36,183 nucleotides of DNA from a virus (lineage: Duplodnaviria; Heunggongvirae; Uroviricota; Caudoviricetes), in the IMG/VR virus record IMGVR_UViG_2551306525_000009; one strand, written 5' to 3'. Positions 24,145-32,350 of the stretch are shown piece by piece. The number at the start of each line of letters is the position of its first letter. The first letter of the stretch is position 1. The notes beneath the pieces are model-generated. The model was not told where the DNA came from, did no database searches, and worked only from the letters and a program-made list of their open reading frames with translations. A program made the position numbers and the translations under genes.

Positions 24145-24525
24145 TCAAAAAGAAGACTGGAACTCTTCTGCTCTGCGCTCAATTTCTGCCATGTAGGATG
24201 TACGGGCTAACTCATGCGCATTGGGTGTCATAATGCTGATTAGCTGATACTTATCTGGATATAAGAAATGGCGGGAGTAAACAAGATAACTGTTTGATTT
24301 ACGCGAGGCGGCAGGTAGCTTTGCAGGCCACGGCTGTTCATCAGGTAAACGAATGTGAATCTTAAAAACAAAAGAATCACGAAGACGCCCGCTATCTTCC
24401 CACTGCCCTTCGTTGCCAAAGACTGAGGGTAAAGATCCGCCGTTTTTCCATGACTGCAAAGCATGTGCATATTTGCGAGCAACTGCGGGGAGTTCTATGT
24501 CATTGTGGACAGAGACTTTAATCAT
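24145..24525 (-). CDS. YafO-like toxin-domain protein
   Basis: 126 aa; C-terminal LISIMTPNAHELAR...AEEF resembles E. coli YafO (LIAILKPEPHKLAR...AEAF, from memory); also SLPSVFG vs VLPDIFG and SYLVYS vs AHLVYC. Confidence 0.5.
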   Translation of the reverse strand: MIKVSVHNDIELPAVARKYAHALQSWKNGGSLPSVFGNEGQWEDSGRLRDSFVFKIHIRLPDEQPWPAKLPAASRKSNSYLVYSRHFLYPDKYQLISIMTPNAHELARTSYMAEIERRAEEFQSSF

Positions 24526-25885: not shown

Positions 25886-26221
25886 TCATTCATGCGTTTT
25901 TTCTTCATGGTCTGTCACTTCTCCCCTGATAATTTCATTGCACAAATCCACGCACTCATTGCAGATGTAAACAGACGGTCCGGCAATCACCTTTATGACT
26001 TCGTGCTGGGATTTATTGCAGAAGCTGCAATAAATCGTCTTCTTGCCTGAAGTCCATGTTTTGCTGATTTCGCCAGACATCAGTTGCTTGATGTCTTTTT
26101 CACGACGAAGAACTATCTGGCCACATTCAGCTATTTTTTGGATGTTGACATTTTCTTCTTTCGCCAGCGCTTCCATTCGCTCAATCAGTCGCTGCGCTTT
26201 TTCTCTGTCAATGTGTTGCAT
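25886..26221 (-). CDS. small protein with ClpX-type C4 zinc-binding domain (ZBD) at its C-terminus
   Basis: [39 protein letters not shown] is near-identical to the E. coli ClpX N-terminal ZBD ([39 protein letters not shown], from memory); GGGGG RBS. Confidence 0.8.
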
Positions 26222-26255
26222 TGTGTCCCCCTTGTTTATGTTCCCGGATTAAAGT

Positions 26256-26279
26256 CATCAGGGCGGATGCGCCCTGATG
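26256..26279. other. hairpin between parR and the ClpX-ZBD gene (CATCAGGGCG-gatg-CGCCCTGATG)
   Basis: perfect 10-bp stem read directly; may separate transcription units or stabilise mRNA. Confidence 0.45.
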
Positions 26280-26284
26280 TTGTG

Positions 26285-26596
26285 TTATTCGGGAAATAAC
26301 GCCCGGATATTTCTGGCCATCTGACTGGTTATCTGTGCGGTTGATACTGGCTGTGACGCGGGGCGTTCTGTCCTGGTTTGTGTCACCGATAACGCCTCAT
26401 CGTCAGCCCATGCAGCCAGTCGGTAAGCCTCTGCCGGATTCATTTTCAGAAGTGCCAGCCCGGCCAGAAAAGCCACGCGTTGGCCGCTTTTGCGGGCTTC
26501 TGGTGTAAGGCTGTCCAGCCAGGCGCATGCTTCGCCTTCGTTCTTGACGGCGGCGGGCTTCAGATAGAAACTTATCCGTCTGGTTGGTGTCGTCAT
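26285..26596 (-). CDS. parR: ParR-like ribbon-helix-helix centromere-binding protein
   Basis: RRISFYLKP...LDSLTPEARKSGQRVAFLAGLALLKMNP...IRALFPE parallels plasmid R1 ParR (from memory); AGGAG RBS. Confidence 0.7.
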   Translation of the reverse strand: MTTPTRRISFYLKPAAVKNEGEACAWLDSLTPEARKSGQRVAFLAGLALLKMNPAEAYRLAAWADDEALSVTQTRTERPASQPVSTAQITSQMARNIRALFPE

Positions 26597-26600
26597 TGGT

Positions 26601-27560
26601 TTACTCCTTGTCCATTGCGTACAGCCCATTAACCAGAGCAAACTGTGGCACCCCGTCCGCGATGAAAGTCGCATTAACTCCGCAGGCTTCGCGGATAGCG
26701 GGTGCCACAATCTCCGCCCCTCCACCGACAACCATCACCCGCCCGTAACCCGAAAAACCCGCCAGCGCGCGGATCACGCGTTGTTTCAGTGTTTCTTCCT
26801 TTTCACGAATAACCTCCATCAGGCTGGCGTAATGCGCGTCATTGTGGATGTGCTGGCGCAGCCAGGCTTCATTATGGCGATGTTCGATAATGGTATTGGC
26901 GATGTGGTGACTGGTGCGCATACCGTTAGTGGCCATCACCGACAGTACGGCATCGGCCATCAGAGAAACGCCTACGTGTGGATCGCAAAACACCTGGCTG
27001 ATACCTGCCAGTTGCCCCTGAACCTTTGCCACATCCAGCGTGGTTCCGCCCAAATCTACAATCAGCAGGGATTCAAACGGACTCATGTCAGCCAGTGCCT
27101 TAAAGCCAGCCGGAATGGATTCAGGCATAACCCGCACGTTACGGATAGTGAATGCTTCGCCGTTCTGGTACTCCACCGGGCGCATAACGTTCGCTTTTTT
27201 GCGGTTGATGTTGGCCATGTCCGGCTGTGCGTTTGTGTCGAAATACTCGCTCAGTGGCAGGGTGACAACCACATCCACCTCCTGTGGCGTGATGCCTGAT
27301 TTGACCAGCGCGTGATGAATGGCAATGACATTCACATCGCTGTACTGGTATTGCGTGTCGGTCGTCTGGACAAAGCGATCGCTGACCGGATCAAAACCAT
27401 AGCGCACGCCATCAAGCATGTAGTTCGCAGGCTGCGAGCCACCGAACGGCGCAGACCATTCCGACTTGAAGCTGTTCGGGCTGATGGCGTTGCGGCGTTC
27501 GCCGTTCTCAGTCCATGCCAGCTTGATGTTGGTGGAGCCGTCGTCGATACAAATTTTCAT
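26601..27560 (-). CDS. parM: ParM/StbA-family actin-like segregation ATPase
   Basis: MKICIDDGSTNIKL (phosphate-1), LIVDLGGTTLDV (phosphate-2), VVGGGAEIV (adenosine) motifs; 319 aa. Confidence 0.8.
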   Translation of the reverse strand: MKICIDDGSTNIKLAWTENGERRNAISPNSFKSEWSAPFGGSQPANYMLDGVRYGFDPVSDRFVQTTDTQYQYSDVNVIAIHHALVKSGITPQEVDVVVTLPLSEYFDTNAQPDMANINRKKANVMRPVEYQNGEAFTIRNVRVMPESIPAGFKALADMSPFESLLIVDLGGTTLDVAKVQGQLAGISQVFCDPHVGVSLMADAVLSVMATNGMRTSHHIANTIIEHRHNEAWLRQHIHNDAHYASLMEVIREKEETLKQRVIRALAGFSGYGRVMVVGGGAEIVAPAIREACGVNATFIADGVPQFALVNGLYAMDKE

Positions 27561-27596
27561 GTCGCTTTTCCTTATGTTGATTAATTAATCGTTTAC

Positions 27597-27627
27597 GGGA
27601 TTCTGAAATCCCGTTTTTGCCTGTTTT
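27597..27627. repeat. repeat unit 1: GGGATTctgaAATCCCGTTTTTGCCTGTTTT (internal 6-bp palindrome), between parM start and A stop
   Basis: read directly; second near-identical copy 74 bp away. Confidence 0.6.
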
Positions 27628-30463
27628 ATGCGCGCTTCATATATCGCGGCGCGTTTTTTTGCTCATTTATGGGATTTGTGAATCCCGTTTCTGTCTGTTT
27701 TTTGTTTCCACTGGTCAGGCCACCCCGCAGCAGGTCTGCTTTGCGGCGGGCGCGTTCAGTGGTTTCACTGATTCTCTGTGCGTGCTCTGCGTCGCGGATG
27801 GCGCGCAGCATGTCAGAAAGCACGGTAACGGGTGTTTTCATGGTGTTCTGGTCCTGCTGAAGTGTGGATGCCAGGCGTGCGGCGGCTTCAGGGTCTGATG
27901 CCCCCAGCTGTGCCAGATAGCTGGCGACCGGGTTATGGCGGATCTCCGTGCTGCTTACATCGTGATTACGGCTCAGGCGCTGCCAGAGCTGCGTGATTCG
28001 GCTGTCCGGGCGGGTATCCGGTTTGCGTACAATTTCAAATCCCTGCGGTGCAATGATGCTGCCGTCAACGTACAGACTGCCGCCCCGTAACAGGTGCTGC
28101 ATCTGTTGTTCACCGATATGCAGGCCAAGGGATTCAGCAGACTCCCGCCATTCTTTAGCGAGTAATTCGTGGTTATCAGGCAAAGGCCGCTGCTGTTTGC
28201 GGCTCTGTGTCCAGCTCTGCATTTCATCACTGTTGTTTTTTGCCTGTTTGTCACGCAGCGAACGCATCAGCGCCCGGCGTTCGTGCCGTTTCAGTGAGTG
28301 CAGCCATTCGTTCACTTCAACACCGTCAGGGATCTGCGGCCACGGTGCTGGCCGTTCTTCCGGCTGTTCTGTCCCGTTGTTGTCCGTTTCCTGTACACGG
28401 GGACAGTTATTGCCACGAGTCCAAGGGGCGGCAGGGCCGCCCTGAAGGTCAAAACCATTTTCGCGGGCGCTGTCTTCCGCTTCCGGTTTACGTCTTACCA
28501 GCTTCCAGTTATCCGGATGCGTGCACACACGGGAGGATTCCCCGATGAGTGGTGACCAGATCCCGTAAATCTGTACGCTCTGTTCGCCGTAATCGTTCAG
28601 CTCATCGGCGAGGTCGTAGGCGGTGCGAATCAGGTAGTCCTTGCGTGGAACAAGTACGCCGCCCTGTTTCTCTATATAGGTGGCAAAACATCCGGCATCA
28701 GCGGCAGCGAGTACCGCATCCATTGCGTCATCCTTCAGCCGTTGCGGGCCTTCCGGGTTGCGTGCCATCTGGCTGGCAAGGCGGCGGAGTTCACGCCACA
28801 CCTGACGGGAGGGGATGCCAAAGAACTGGAACTGGCGGACCCGGTGAAGGCGCGCCCAGCCGATGGCGCGCTCCACGCTCTCGGCCATTGATTTTCCGGT
28901 TTCGTGGTCAACGCGTGGTTTGCCCGTTTTCGGGTCGATGCCATCCACGGCGCGGCTGTCCAGGTTCTTTCCGATGTAGGTGGCGATGTAGCTGGTTGGC
29001 GTGCCTTTTGAGCCGTCTACATACTCCGCCTTAAAGCGCGGAGTAATATCATCACCCAGCTCGTGACGATCTTCCTGAATGGCAATATCGCGGGTGTGGG
29101 ACACAATGGTGTCGATTTCTTCCGGATGGGCAAAGACCATCATATGCCAGTGTACGGTGCCGTCATGGTGAGGCTCCACCGTGCGGATGCCATACCAGCG
29201 CAGGCCGTCGCGGTTCAGTTTTTTGCGGACCGCCGCAAAAAACGTGTTAACCAGGTAGTCGCTGGAGTCGCGCATGGTGGCCCCGTTCCATTTGGGGTTC
29301 GGATGACCGTTCTCCGTTGTTGCGTGGTATTTTGACGGGCAGGTGACAGTCAGAAACACCGCTTTGTCACCACGGGCTTCGGCCAGAAGTTCCAGCCCCT
29401 TCATGGTGGCCATCATTTCTGCCTTACGGTGAACCGGGTTACTTACTCCCGCGTAATACACTGTCTCGAGATCAATCGTGAACCCGTCTTCGTTTTCCAG
29501 CATGAAACTTTTCAGGAAATCGCGTGTTTTCTCGCGCTGTGCGCGAAACTCGCTTAACGCGTCCTGGCTCAGATAAGGCGATGTTTTTCTGGAAACCAGA
29601 CAGGCGGCGCGGAGTTGTTCTTCTCTCCACTCGCAACGTAACAGCCACAGTTTGCGTTTCCACCAGTCCGCACAGGTCAGGCGAAGGATTGCGCCCGGCA
29701 GCAGTTCCGTATCCGGTTCGCTCTTGTTCAGGGCTTCGTAATGTGGCGGCATGATGTGCAGGCGTAATGCGATACGAGCCAGCATCCGGTAAGCCTTCAA
29801 CATTACATCCATGGTCAGCTCGCCATCTCTGGCACCAAAGCCATCGCAGAGTGTTTCGAAGGTGCTGCTGAACATCGCCGCGGTCATGGTGGCCAGCGTC
29901 TGTATCTGGTGCTTGTTGAGCTGCGGCAGGTAAAGCAAATCGTCCAGGCGTTCGCGCCCGGCAAGGGAGCGATAACCCGGTGTCAGCCAGCGTCCGTCAG
30001 TGCGATCCAGACGTTCGAATATTTTGCGCAGGGGTCCGCGTGCATAGCGTTCCGCCTGCCAGCTCTTTTTACCTTTCTGGCGATCGGCTTCCTGTTTTTT
30101 GCGCAGGAAAGAGAGGTGGCGGCTCAGTGGTTCACGCAGATAAACAGGTAGTGCCTTTAGTGTGGCAAAGGCACGGGCTACCGGGTCTTGTTCTGTTGCC
30201 CGGCGCTTACTGATGATGCTCTGTGCCAGCTTTTCACGCTGTCCGGCTTCCTCAAGGGATGCCATGAGTTTTTTACCCATGGCGGATTGTGCGAAAAAGG
30301 CTTCTTCCTTCGCTTCCTGTTCTTCCTGTGCCCTTTTGTCCGCCTCAAGGTAGTAACGGATGGCGCGTTGCAGGTCGGTTTCAGTTTCCTGCCTGCGCTC
30401 CGTAAATCTGGCCGGATCAATGGCTGGCCGTGGTTCATTCCAGCTCCATGCAAACTCGCTCAT
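27626..30463 (-). CDS. A: replication initiation protein A (rolling-circle initiator, P2 gpA family)
   Basis: TVTCPSKYH, VEPHHDGTVHWHMMVF and YIATYIGKN active-site blocks as in P2/186 gpA; start either ATG 30463 (ATGA-coupled) or GTG 30490. Confidence 0.85.
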   Translation of the reverse strand: MSEFAWSWNEPRPAIDPARFTERRQETETDLQRAIRYYLEADKRAQEEQEAKEEAFFAQSAMGKKLMASLEEAGQREKLAQSIISKRRATEQDPVARAFATLKALPVYLREPLSRHLSFLRKKQEADRQKGKKSWQAERYARGPLRKIFERLDRTDGRWLTPGYRSLAGRERLDDLLYLPQLNKHQIQTLATMTAAMFSSTFETLCDGFGARDGELTMDVMLKAYRMLARIALRLHIMPPHYEALNKSEPDTELLPGAILRLTCADWWKRKLWLLRCEWREEQLRAACLVSRKTSPYLSQDALSEFRAQREKTRDFLKSFMLENEDGFTIDLETVYYAGVSNPVHRKAEMMATMKGLELLAEARGDKAVFLTVTCPSKYHATTENGHPNPKWNGATMRDSSDYLVNTFFAAVRKKLNRDGLRWYGIRTVEPHHDGTVHWHMMVFAHPEEIDTIVSHTRDIAIQEDRHELGDDITPRFKAEYVDGSKGTPTSYIATYIGKNLDSRAVDGIDPKTGKPRVDHETGKSMAESVERAIGWARLHRVRQFQFFGIPSRQVWRELRRLASQMARNPEGPQRLKDDAMDAVLAAADAGCFATYIEKQGGVLVPRKDYLIRTAYDLADELNDYGEQSVQIYGIWSPLIGESSRVCTHPDNWKLVRRKPEAEDSARENGFDLQGGPAAPWTRGNNCPRVQETDNNGTEQPEERPAPWPQIPDGVEVNEWLHSLKRHERRALMRSLRDKQAKNNSDEMQSWTQSRKQQRPLPDNHELLAKEWRESAESLGLHIGEQQMQHLLRGGSLYVDGSIIAPQGFEIVRKPDTRPDSRITQLWQRLSRNHDVSSTEIRHNPVASYLAQLGASDPEAAARLASTLQQDQNTMKTPVTVLSDMLRAIRDAEHAQRISETTERARRKADLLRGGLTSGNKKQTETGFTNPINEQKNAPRYMKRA
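27671..27701. repeat. repeat unit 2: GGGATTtgtgAATCCCGTTTCTGTCTGTTTT, inside the 3' coding end of gene A
   Basis: read directly; candidate parC-like centromere/operator or part of the replication origin. Confidence 0.6.
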
Positions 30464-30849
30464 GGCTGGTATCCCGTCACGCGCTGCCACTCCTGCGAGA
30501 AGATGGCGGAAAGGCGGTTAAATTCAGCGGTGTATTCACTCAGCGAGGCACACCCGCCAGCAGTGCGATGCGCCAGCATTGCCGCGAATACGGAGGCCGG
30601 GGAGTCGTAATACGCCAGCAGTGATTCGCCGTGTGGTGTCAGGCAGTGCAACGCCAGCCCGTGTGGTGTGAAGTCCACGCGGTAGCAGTCGTCTACTGTG
30701 AAATAAAGGGTGTCCGCATTCTCCGGTTTTGTAGTGCGTGCTCTGTTGTCACGACCACGGATGTAAAGATCAAATAATCCCTGAAGAACGGGAGCCAGAC
30801 GGGTGTCCTGTGTGCGCACCCATCTTGTGAAGTCATGAGCGTCAATCAT
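30460..30849 (-). CDS. hypothetical protein, 129 aa, stop overlapping A start
   Basis: ORF translationally coupled to A. Confidence 0.5.
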   Translation of the reverse strand: MIDAHDFTRWVRTQDTRLAPVLQGLFDLYIRGRDNRARTTKPENADTLYFTVDDCYRVDFTPHGLALHCLTPHGESLLAYYDSPASVFAAMLAHRTAGGCASLSEYTAEFNRLSAIFSQEWQRVTGYQP

Positions 30850-31519: not shown

Positions 31520-32350
31520 TTACTTCACCGGAACAAACGGAACAGCGGTATTACTGGTCATGTATTGCGGCAGCGTGCCGTTCCATTTGTTGATAGCTTC
31601 CAGCTCCATAACGCCGGGGTTCTGGCGCAGAGCTTCACCGCGCAAACGAATGGCGTCGGCTTCAGCCTGGGCTTTTGTGCGAATGGCATCAGCCTGTCCG
31701 GCTGCTTCTGCGCGTAGCATGTTGGCTTCTGCTTCGCGCTGCTTGACTTCCTGTTCGCGTTGCAGAGTTTTCTGGTTTGCCGTGACTTTGGCATTAATGC
31801 TGTCGATAACGGTTGGTGGGTATTCCGGTTTACCGACATAAGAGAGGCTCATTACCTGAATGCCGATAGGTGTCATTTCTGCCTGAATGTCTTTAAGTGC
31901 TGAATCCAGCAGTTCAGACTTGCCACCGTCGATAAATTTATCGGTGGTCATTTTACTGGCCAGTCGGTTGAGTGCGTCGGCGATCTTCTGGCGCAGGTCA
32001 GTGTCGGTAATGTCATCCACGCCTTTGCGGTAGGTCTGAAACACTGTAGTAACTTTGGATGGATCAACCTTGTAGGCCACACCGATGTGATAGCCGATGG
32101 TTGTGCCGTCACTCATCTGAAAGCTGAACGGCTCATCGTAGGTCTTCATTTGTTTGAAGGTTGGGAAGATGTAAACCTCTGTATTCCAGCCTGTCCAGTA
32201 GCGGCCAACGCCAACCACTTCACCGACGCCTTTGTCGTCGCCCAGTTTGTTGACTTTGATGCCCACATTACCTGGCTCAACGCGATCGCAACCAACCAGC
32301 AGGATGGCAGCAAAAAGCGGGAGAATCTGAAAGAGTTTGAATCTCTTCAT
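31520..32350 (-). CDS. SPFH/band-7 (stomatin/HflK/C-like) lipoprotein
   Basis: lipobox LLVGC after signal peptide; SPFH-like core then Ala/Glu/Arg-rich coiled-coil tail (EADAIRLRGEALRQNPGVMELEAINKW), assigned by sequence character. Confidence 0.65.
   Translation of the reverse strand: MKRFKLFQILPLFAAILLVGCDRVEPGNVGIKVNKLGDDKGVGEVVGVGRYWTGWNTEVYIFPTFKQMKTYDEPFSFQMSDGTTIGYHIGVAYKVDPSKVTTVFQTYRKGVDDITDTDLRQKIADALNRLASKMTTDKFIDGGKSELLDSALKDIQAEMTPIGIQVMSLSYVGKPEYPPTVIDSINAKVTANQKTLQREQEVKQREAEANMLRAEAAGQADAIRTKAQAEADAIRLRGEALRQNPGVMELEAINKWNGTLPQYMTSNTAVPFVPVK

Follow-up and report, generated by a model that had tools for sequence, protein, structure and literature searches.

The 116-base-pair (bp) segment at positions 27589-27704 of a 36,183-nucleotide (nt) stretch of viral DNA (Caudoviricetes; IMG/VR record IMGVR_UViG_2551306525_000009; the whole stretch is referred to here as the window) is, as judged from sequence comparisons, probably a split parC centromere/operator that belongs to the type II (ParMRC) partition cassette of an Escherichia coli prophage, P88-like and of the P2 family. 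ParMRC is a textbook actin-like DNA segregation machine. Existing annotations of P88-like phages include ParM and ParR; their centromere carries no annotation. The region 26200-28400 of the window is 98% identical to Escherichia phage P88, and likewise to 13 further phage records; P88 is a P2-like temperate phage (Xuanwuvirus, Peduoviridae). An earlier note on this DNA had offered two readings of a pair of repeats near the end of the phage replication gene A, namely origin elements or a parC-like centromere/operator, or both. The second of these is supported by the position of the repeats, by their conservation across phage lineages, by their co-occurrence with one type of ParR N-terminal strand, and by the boundary of a natural mosaic.

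The motif GGGATT-N4-AATCCCGTTT, which the earlier note had located at 27597 and 27671, is present as exact matches on the + strand at 27597-27616 and 27671-27690. Four matches were found where 0.31 were expected, and none of 100 shuffled sequences reached four; the motif is palindromic, so that the weaker reverse-strand matches fall on the same two places, and the GGGATT palindrome has no further occurrence in the 36-kb window. At 27610-27627 and 27684-27701 it continues into the T-rich sequence CCCGTTTYTGYCTGTTTT, again without a mismatch. The repeats thus exist as described, but the unit of 31 bp given for them is too short: the true unit measures 42 nt and is present as two direct copies (79% identical; start-to-start distance 74 bp) on the minus strand at 27589-27630 (proximal) and 27663-27704 (distal). 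Each unit carries a 16-bp palindrome, GGGATT-N4-AATCCC. The proximal one (GGGATTCTGAAATCCC on the + strand; 27597..27612), a putative ParR site, is positioned 52 nt 5' of the parM ATG, and the distal one (GGGATTTGTGAATCCC on the + strand; 27671..27686) 126 nt 5' of it. The two units flank a minus-strand core of 32 bp (27631..27662) with an A7 run (27654-27660), G+C-rich flanks and a central GATATAT, which gives the element its 42 + 32 + 42 architecture. Since 74 bp correspond to seven helical turns of 10.5 bp, both palindromes lie on the same side of the helix.

All genes near the repeats are encoded on the minus strand. In the characterized type II loci, parC is found directly 5' of parM-parR (PMC2241845, PMC5016525, PMC9426499), and the repeated DNA of the window has this very position, the two units ending 28 nt before the start codon of parM (26601-27560; 319 amino acids (aa)). 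Pfam identifies the product of this gene as the actin-like partition ATPase of such a locus (StbA_N, 2.1e-82; ParM C-terminal domain, 3.7e-68), and it is 47-52% identical to the ParM/StbA proteins of plasmids and of phage D6. The adjacent gene (26285-26596; 103 aa) encodes a StbB-family ParR that can be recognized as the adaptor protein through its Pfam domain (PF10784, Plasmid_stab_B; 3.9e-24), a family profile, hhalign, and its C-terminal tail. A ParR family profile that includes the window protein matches PDB entry 2JD3 (E=5.7e-16), deposited as 'STBB PROTEIN', which we take to be the ParR of pB171. When the window protein was compared by hhalign with an R1-type ParR, whose sequence matched plasmid records at 100%, a probability of 97.5% was obtained. 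The protein starts with the N-terminal strand TRRISFYLKP and finishes with a tail (…NIRALFPE) whose …N..LFP end is conserved in the alignment; the corresponding tail is the ParM-binding part of R1 ParR. A phmmer search of PDB with the ParR sequence returned no match, and an AlphaFold2 model of the monomer (built from a 30-sequence alignment) had a mean predicted local distance difference test score (pLDDT) of 57 with a disordered N-terminal strand; it did not confirm the fold.

A comparison of parM loci gathered from a viral contig collection, from protein-database hits traced back to their contigs, from one genome per species, and from plasmids and phages revealed that the repeats are kept across four diverged phage lineages; conservation in related prophages was a point on which the earlier note had made its proposals depend. 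In each of the four, a pair of GGG-N10-CCC elements, 72-74 bp apart, is found at a near-constant distance from the parM start codon: at -126 and -52 in the P88 clade (ParM 98-99% identical to that of the window), at -124 and -51 in the Hafnia metagenome-assembled genome loci L150/L151 (ParM 94%, ParR 73%), at -128 and -55 in Hafnia L085 (ParM 62%), and at -131 and -59 in Plesiomonas L088 (ParM 62%). The repeat units themselves are retained in L150/L151 and in some 50 different sequences of the P88 clade. Not one GGG-N10-CCC 16-mer was present in about 44 other parM upstream regions; by our own estimate, such an element is expected by chance about 0.07 times per 300 nt. What is retained differs with distance: in L151, the half-sites GGGATT/AATCCC are perfect and the 4-nt spacers, the core and the flank on the gene A side have diverged, and L085 and L088 keep no more than the outer GGG/CCC and the spacing. 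Concerted changes, which affect the same position of both units and favor a parC, were observed in the right half-sites of L028 and L057 and in the left half-sites of L050. Further loci of the Hafnia and Plesiomonas types were essentially absent from the viral collection.

The comparison with L050 (IMG/VR UViG_2547132279_000014) separates the repeats from the gene in which one of them is embedded. Gene A of this phage (871 aa, 78% identical) ends about 460 bp earlier, and an unrelated open reading frame (ORF) of 155 aa (3457-3924 of L050) occupies the interval up to the putative parC, its end being the same tail encoded by parC DNA. The DNA becomes homologous to the window abruptly, at about 27705 (the 5' edge of the distal unit), and stays so without a break through both units into parM. 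The repeats travel with parMR, since the homology to L050 begins exactly at the distal repeat, past the unrelated ORF. A similar arrangement is found in L085, where the ORF that reads into the repeats is an unrelated one of 167 aa, and in the Enterobacter-type locus L095 gene A and parM are 1.2 kb apart. We consider that the repeats are, on this comparison, part of the par cassette and not of gene A.

The relationship between the repeats and the 3' end of gene A deserves a closer look. This gene (27626-30490; Pfam Phage_GPA, 1.8e-130) encodes a gpA-like replication endonuclease and comprises 954 codons when counted from the first GTG, although the true start may be an ATG nine codons further in; with 954 versus 761 aa it is indeed, as the earlier note had stated, longer than the gpA of P2, to which it is 30% identical over residues 107-810. 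Its TAA stop codon (27626-27628) is included in the sense 5' edge of the proximal unit, which shares 2-5 nt with the stop and lies in intergenic DNA for the rest of its length; the distal unit is located wholly inside the ORF, within its final ~26 codons, where it encodes …KQTETGFTNPINEQKNAPRYMKRA*. The peptide QTETGFTNPINE, assigned in the earlier note to the C-terminus of A, is encoded there, but the ORF continues for another 11 codons (…QKNAPRYMKRA*). The same note had regarded the combination of coding and cis-acting constraints on this DNA as notable, a view with which several observations are at odds. Most relatives carry A6, and rarely A5, in place of the A7 run of the window, which shifts the frame of gene A and alters the spacing of the repeats by 1 bp, and their gene A stops within the core, at a TGA that corresponds to 27637-27639. 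When the alignment is read by eye, most substitutions in the distal unit look nonsynonymous (E to K, F to L, N to K, V to I or A), and other ORFs read through the same repeat DNA in L050 and L085. The coding of the repeats by gene A therefore looks incidental, and the supposed dual constraint largely illusory; a gene A that has no stop codon ahead of the cassette would just read into the distal unit. If ParR binds the palindromes, annotators should be aware that the last ~25-26 codons of 'gene A' are centromere DNA and not functional protein.

In P2, the origin of replication is a cis-acting site that lies within gene A, in the 3' half of its coding sequence, and the distal repeat of the window also lies within the A ORF. 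The repeats could accordingly be seen as part of an origin, either as accessory gpA-binding sites or as the nick region itself. We consider this so improbable that it is the least credible of the readings discussed here. The alignment to the P2 ori and A nick site that the earlier note had recommended places the homologue of the P2 nick-site sequence (GCGCCTCG/GAGTCCTGTCAATAAC) elsewhere: none is present within 27589-27704, and it is found as CCTTGGACTCGTGGCAATAACTGT at 28403..28426 on the minus strand, inside gene A and ~720 bp from the repeats. The P2 ori thus differs from the repeats in both sequence and place. The P2 record puts the nick at 29892, and 24 of 30 bases at the homologous site are the same as in P2, though the two proteins are only 30% identical. 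The pattern CCT(T/C)GGA…TG(G/T)CAATAACTGT is present in every gpA gene that we fetched (P88 clade, Serratia, Enterobacter, Hafnia, Plesiomonas, and P2); this nick-site DNA is conserved far better than the surrounding protein, even in phages in which parC differs or parM is apart from gene A. The segment 28403-28426 is likely to be the origin, separate from the repeats. Furthermore, the repeats persist where the upstream gene is not A, accompanying parMR in L050 and L085, and the alignment to P2 gpA stops at residue 810 of the 954 residues of the window protein. The next-closest gpA relatives in the phage collection (~44% identity), for which no ParM match was found, likewise align only to residues 806-812, and it is from this end of the alignment that we deduce that they lack the A tail.

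Two partial copies of the T-rich part of the repeats occur within gene A, both within ~200 bp of the nick-site homologue. One (28237-28249, + strand) reproduces 13 nt of the proximal repeat, from its T-rich part, without a mismatch (TTTTTGCCTGTTT), and the other is a 23-nt stretch (28372-28394, + strand; 78%) that might, as a weak third copy close to the nick-site homologue, be cited in favor of an origin function. Both are probably chance matches; in the case of the 13-mer, we base this judgment on the fact that the protein sequence around it is not conserved in L050.

When the repeats are viewed in the context of the ParR proteins encoded next to them, a further line of evidence for a parC emerges. 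The 16-mers occur only where ParR possesses the N-terminal strand TRR(I/V)SFYL, a feature of the four lineages that contain them, and they are absent from about 40 loci whose ParR has another head. ParRs starting with NRKISFYLKP (Serratia- and Enterobacter-type phages) are accompanied by a different inverted repeat of ~20 nt, and those starting with RRKITFYLNP, NRKCSFYIYP or RRTIAFKLNP (plasmids, R1) by classical 10-11-bp iterons on both sides of the promoter. In ribbon-helix-helix proteins, the N-terminal strand inserts into the major groove (PMC5016525); because of this, the co-occurrence of strand and 16-mer is as expected of a cognate protein-site pair. Within the P88 clade, ParM is steady at 98-99% identity, and the first 17 residues of ParR and the palindromes are constant; over its whole length, ParR identity to the window protein falls from ~96% to ~50-55% (103- and 104-aa types; L007, L009, L011, L013 and others). 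The diversification of the ParR body might be related to the coexistence of several prophages.

Helix-turn-helix (HTH) dimers, too, typically have sites in the form of a 16-bp palindrome whose half-sites are spaced by 10 bp; the cassette closes the early operon, with a cox-like gene and gene A upstream of it; and the link between ParR and the 16-mers is drawn from comparing sequences. One could therefore imagine that the 16-mers are operators of another DNA-binding protein of the phage or its host, which would gate read-through from the early operon into parMR. We regard this as improbable, although it is the strongest of the competing functions considered for the repeats: the 36-kb window has no other copy of the motif, which hence is not part of a wider phage regulon; the 16-mers track one type of ParR strand across Escherichia, Hafnia and Plesiomonas; and they move with parMR in mosaics.

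Palindromes of this kind may also act at the level of RNA, as intrinsic terminators or as an intercistronic structure that influences mRNA stability or the translation of parM. On the + (antisense) strand, both units do resemble terminators, with an 8-bp stem followed by a T-run, and the sense RNA of 27561-27720 folds better than shuffled sequences (z = -3.9), with the two palindromes pairing mutually. Such a fold is, however, an automatic consequence of the presence of two copies of a palindrome. Hairpins followed by a U-run, and conserved as an intrinsic terminator should be, are not found on the transcribed (minus) strand, and no convergent gene end is situated at the repeats. Among 49 distinct relatives, no base pair was changed on both sides, and pair 31-38 was broken in 13 of them; the Plesiomonas elements (GGGACAACAAAAACCC) pair through GGG/CCC only, so that no hairpin is possible there; terminator-like sites are missing from L085 and L088; and Rfam contained no matching family. 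We thus give an RNA function very little credence, somewhat less than an operator for another protein and slightly more than an origin.

With a parC as the preferred reading, the best-studied system for comparison is that of plasmid R1. Its parC spans 159 bp, with a 39-bp promoter core that has a block of five 11-bp iterons on either side; R1 ParR loads each block, and the DNA is folded into a U (PMC2241845). The phage element resembles R1 parC, and those of its plasmid relatives, in being positioned directly 5' of parM-parR with two repeat blocks and a core between them. As in R1, the sense strand is A-rich with A-tracts phased at ~10.5 bp (10.6 bp in the window, where none of 500 shuffles reached the observed power, and 10.5 bp in R1 parC, where 6 of 500 did), the last repeat abuts the CATAAGGA ribosome-binding region, and the ParR proteins are homologous, with the N-terminal strand region and the C-terminal tail included. 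The phage element differs from R1 parC in having two 42-bp units instead of ten 11-bp iterons, in that its conserved element is a 16-bp inverted and not a direct repeat, in its shorter core of 32 bp without an evident strong promoter (the scan for which is uninformative, as detailed below), in the location of its distal block inside an upstream ORF, and in that the replicon is an integrating prophage and not a plasmid. The pB171 system shares with the phage the possession of few repeats instead of a long array, and its presumed ParR structure is the one matched by the ParR family profile (2JD3, E=5.7e-16); its repeats, compared here by description only, are direct 10-mers (PMC9426499), in contrast to the two palindromes 74 bp apart in the phage. 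The repeats are, in our view, best filed as an unusual but recognizable parC, whose variant features are the two units, the conserved inverted repeat, the overlap with the upstream ORF, and the residence in an integrating prophage.

Several findings weigh against this assignment. The ParR proteins characterized so far are said to bind arrays of direct repeats (PMC9426499); the conserved core of the phage element is an inverted repeat present in two units only, and no array of 10-20-bp direct iterons like those of R1, pB171, pSK41 and pCW3 was found. A matrix derived from the ten R1 11-mers and run over the whole window produced matches everywhere and did not single out the region. The A-tract phasing is absent in L085 and L088. 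No clear promoter was detected by a consensus scan of the window, L085 and L088, a negative result that is uninformative in that the same scan also misses the documented promoter of R1 parC (PMC2241845). In a per-column analysis of 65 distinct P88-clade sequences, the repeats were no less variable than their flanks; this clade is too shallow for a conservation signal. Literature searches on the parMRC genes of P88/Xuanwuvirus retrieved, from the library searched, no study and no description of a parC. Finally, the element is almost always chromosomal: of the 1443 places at which the parC-parM segment occurs in complete Escherichia coli genomes, 1441 are chromosomal and two are on plasmids.

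One of the plasmid records with a parM locus (NZ_CP148288.1; L084) is circular, has a size of 34.5 kb, and represents a complete P88-like phage genome. Either the phage exists there outside the chromosome, or DNA of induced phage may have been assembled.

A weak sigma-70 promoter candidate can be discerned by eye in the core and just outside it, with ATGAGC (27661-27666) as the -35 region, a 17-nt spacer, and TATATG (27638-27643) as the -10 region; the latter reads TATAAG in L151. In addition, the string ATTAATCAA (sense strand, ~27572-27580) is found 11-14 nt 3' of the proximal palindrome, just before the ribosome-binding site, and is common to the Escherichia, Hafnia (L085) and Plesiomonas (L088) lineages despite the divergence of the neighboring sequence; it may function in translation initiation, as part of that region, or may be a -10-like element. 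A candidate integration host factor (IHF) site at AATCAACATAAGG was dismissed upon inspection, as the TTR part of the consensus is not satisfied.

We infer ParR binding to the element and its stoichiometry, DNA looping, autoregulation and partition activity. Ribbon-helix-helix dimers of ParR would occupy the half-sites, probably as a dimer of dimers on each palindrome, and may spread cooperatively across the phased A-tract flanks, whose 10.6-bp period would allow cryptic sub-sites of 10-11 bp. The two loaded units would then loop out the core, as has been described for R1 parC/ParR, and the resulting complex might capture the growing ends of ParM filaments via the conserved C-terminal tail of ParR. 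The same complex would be expected to damp transcription into parM.

The ParMRC centromeres described so far are, to our knowledge, direct-repeat arrays on plasmids. The phage element would represent a compact two-palindrome centromere conserved across P2-like prophages of Escherichia, Hafnia and Plesiomonas. Should ParR bind the palindromes, the TRR(I/V)SFYL strand and its GGG…CCC site would make up a minimal, readily testable recognition pair and offer a way to find out why a phage that integrates retains a partition system, a question that we find more interesting than the repeats themselves. The phage is an integrating one, and the cassette is placed distally in its early operon: upstream of gene A, the minus strand carries a Cox-like gene together with further early genes, and a tyrosine integrase gene is found at the end of the window. 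It is conceivable, if rather unlikely, that the element is a stripped-down, palindromic two-site centromere that lacks a strong promoter of its own, with ParMRC produced by read-through from the early (lytic) operon only and acting on the excised or newly injected circular genome. If this were true, ParMRC would segregate the circular phage genome prior to integration or position replicating genomes during lytic growth, and the integrated chromosomal copy would be silent; an actin-type partition system would then serve a step in the life cycle of a virus in roughly a quarter of all complete E. coli genomes. The parC-parM segment is present in 1304 of 5426 such genomes, with up to three copies per genome, and those that carry it include representatives of O157:H7, O104:H4 and ST131.

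Related prophages of Serratia (L089/L100) and of the Enterobacter type (L095/L149) carry parM-parR in the same terminal slot of the early operon, following either gpA or genes located in between, and have the string ACAGGCAAAAACGGGA in common with the window. Their putative parC, ~40-130 nt 5' of parM, differs from that of the window. Its inverted repeat of ~20 nt (GGGAACGAAATAGAAAAAT … ATTTTTCTATTTC) has a spacer of ~26 nt, a second short repeat (ATTTCATGACC) is present twice, and the accompanying ParR has the NRKISFYLKP head.

The accessory genes of the window, all on the minus strand, include those for a YafO-type toxin homologue (24145-24525), a small protein with a ClpX-type C4 zinc finger (25886-26221, directly 3' of parR) and an SPFH/Band-7 protein (31520-32350). 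The genes that follow parR vary among close relatives, where DUF3800, a single-stranded DNA-binding protein (SSB), or an HTH/M78 peptidase pair can be found. A few enterobacterial parM loci of near-identical sequence appear in the databases under Gram-positive labels, such as L098 (NZ_JBQPOM010000071.1, Vagococcus sp.; 97% to the window) and L118 (labeled Streptomyces morookaense), which encodes an R1-type ParR; the labels of both probably stem from assembly contamination.

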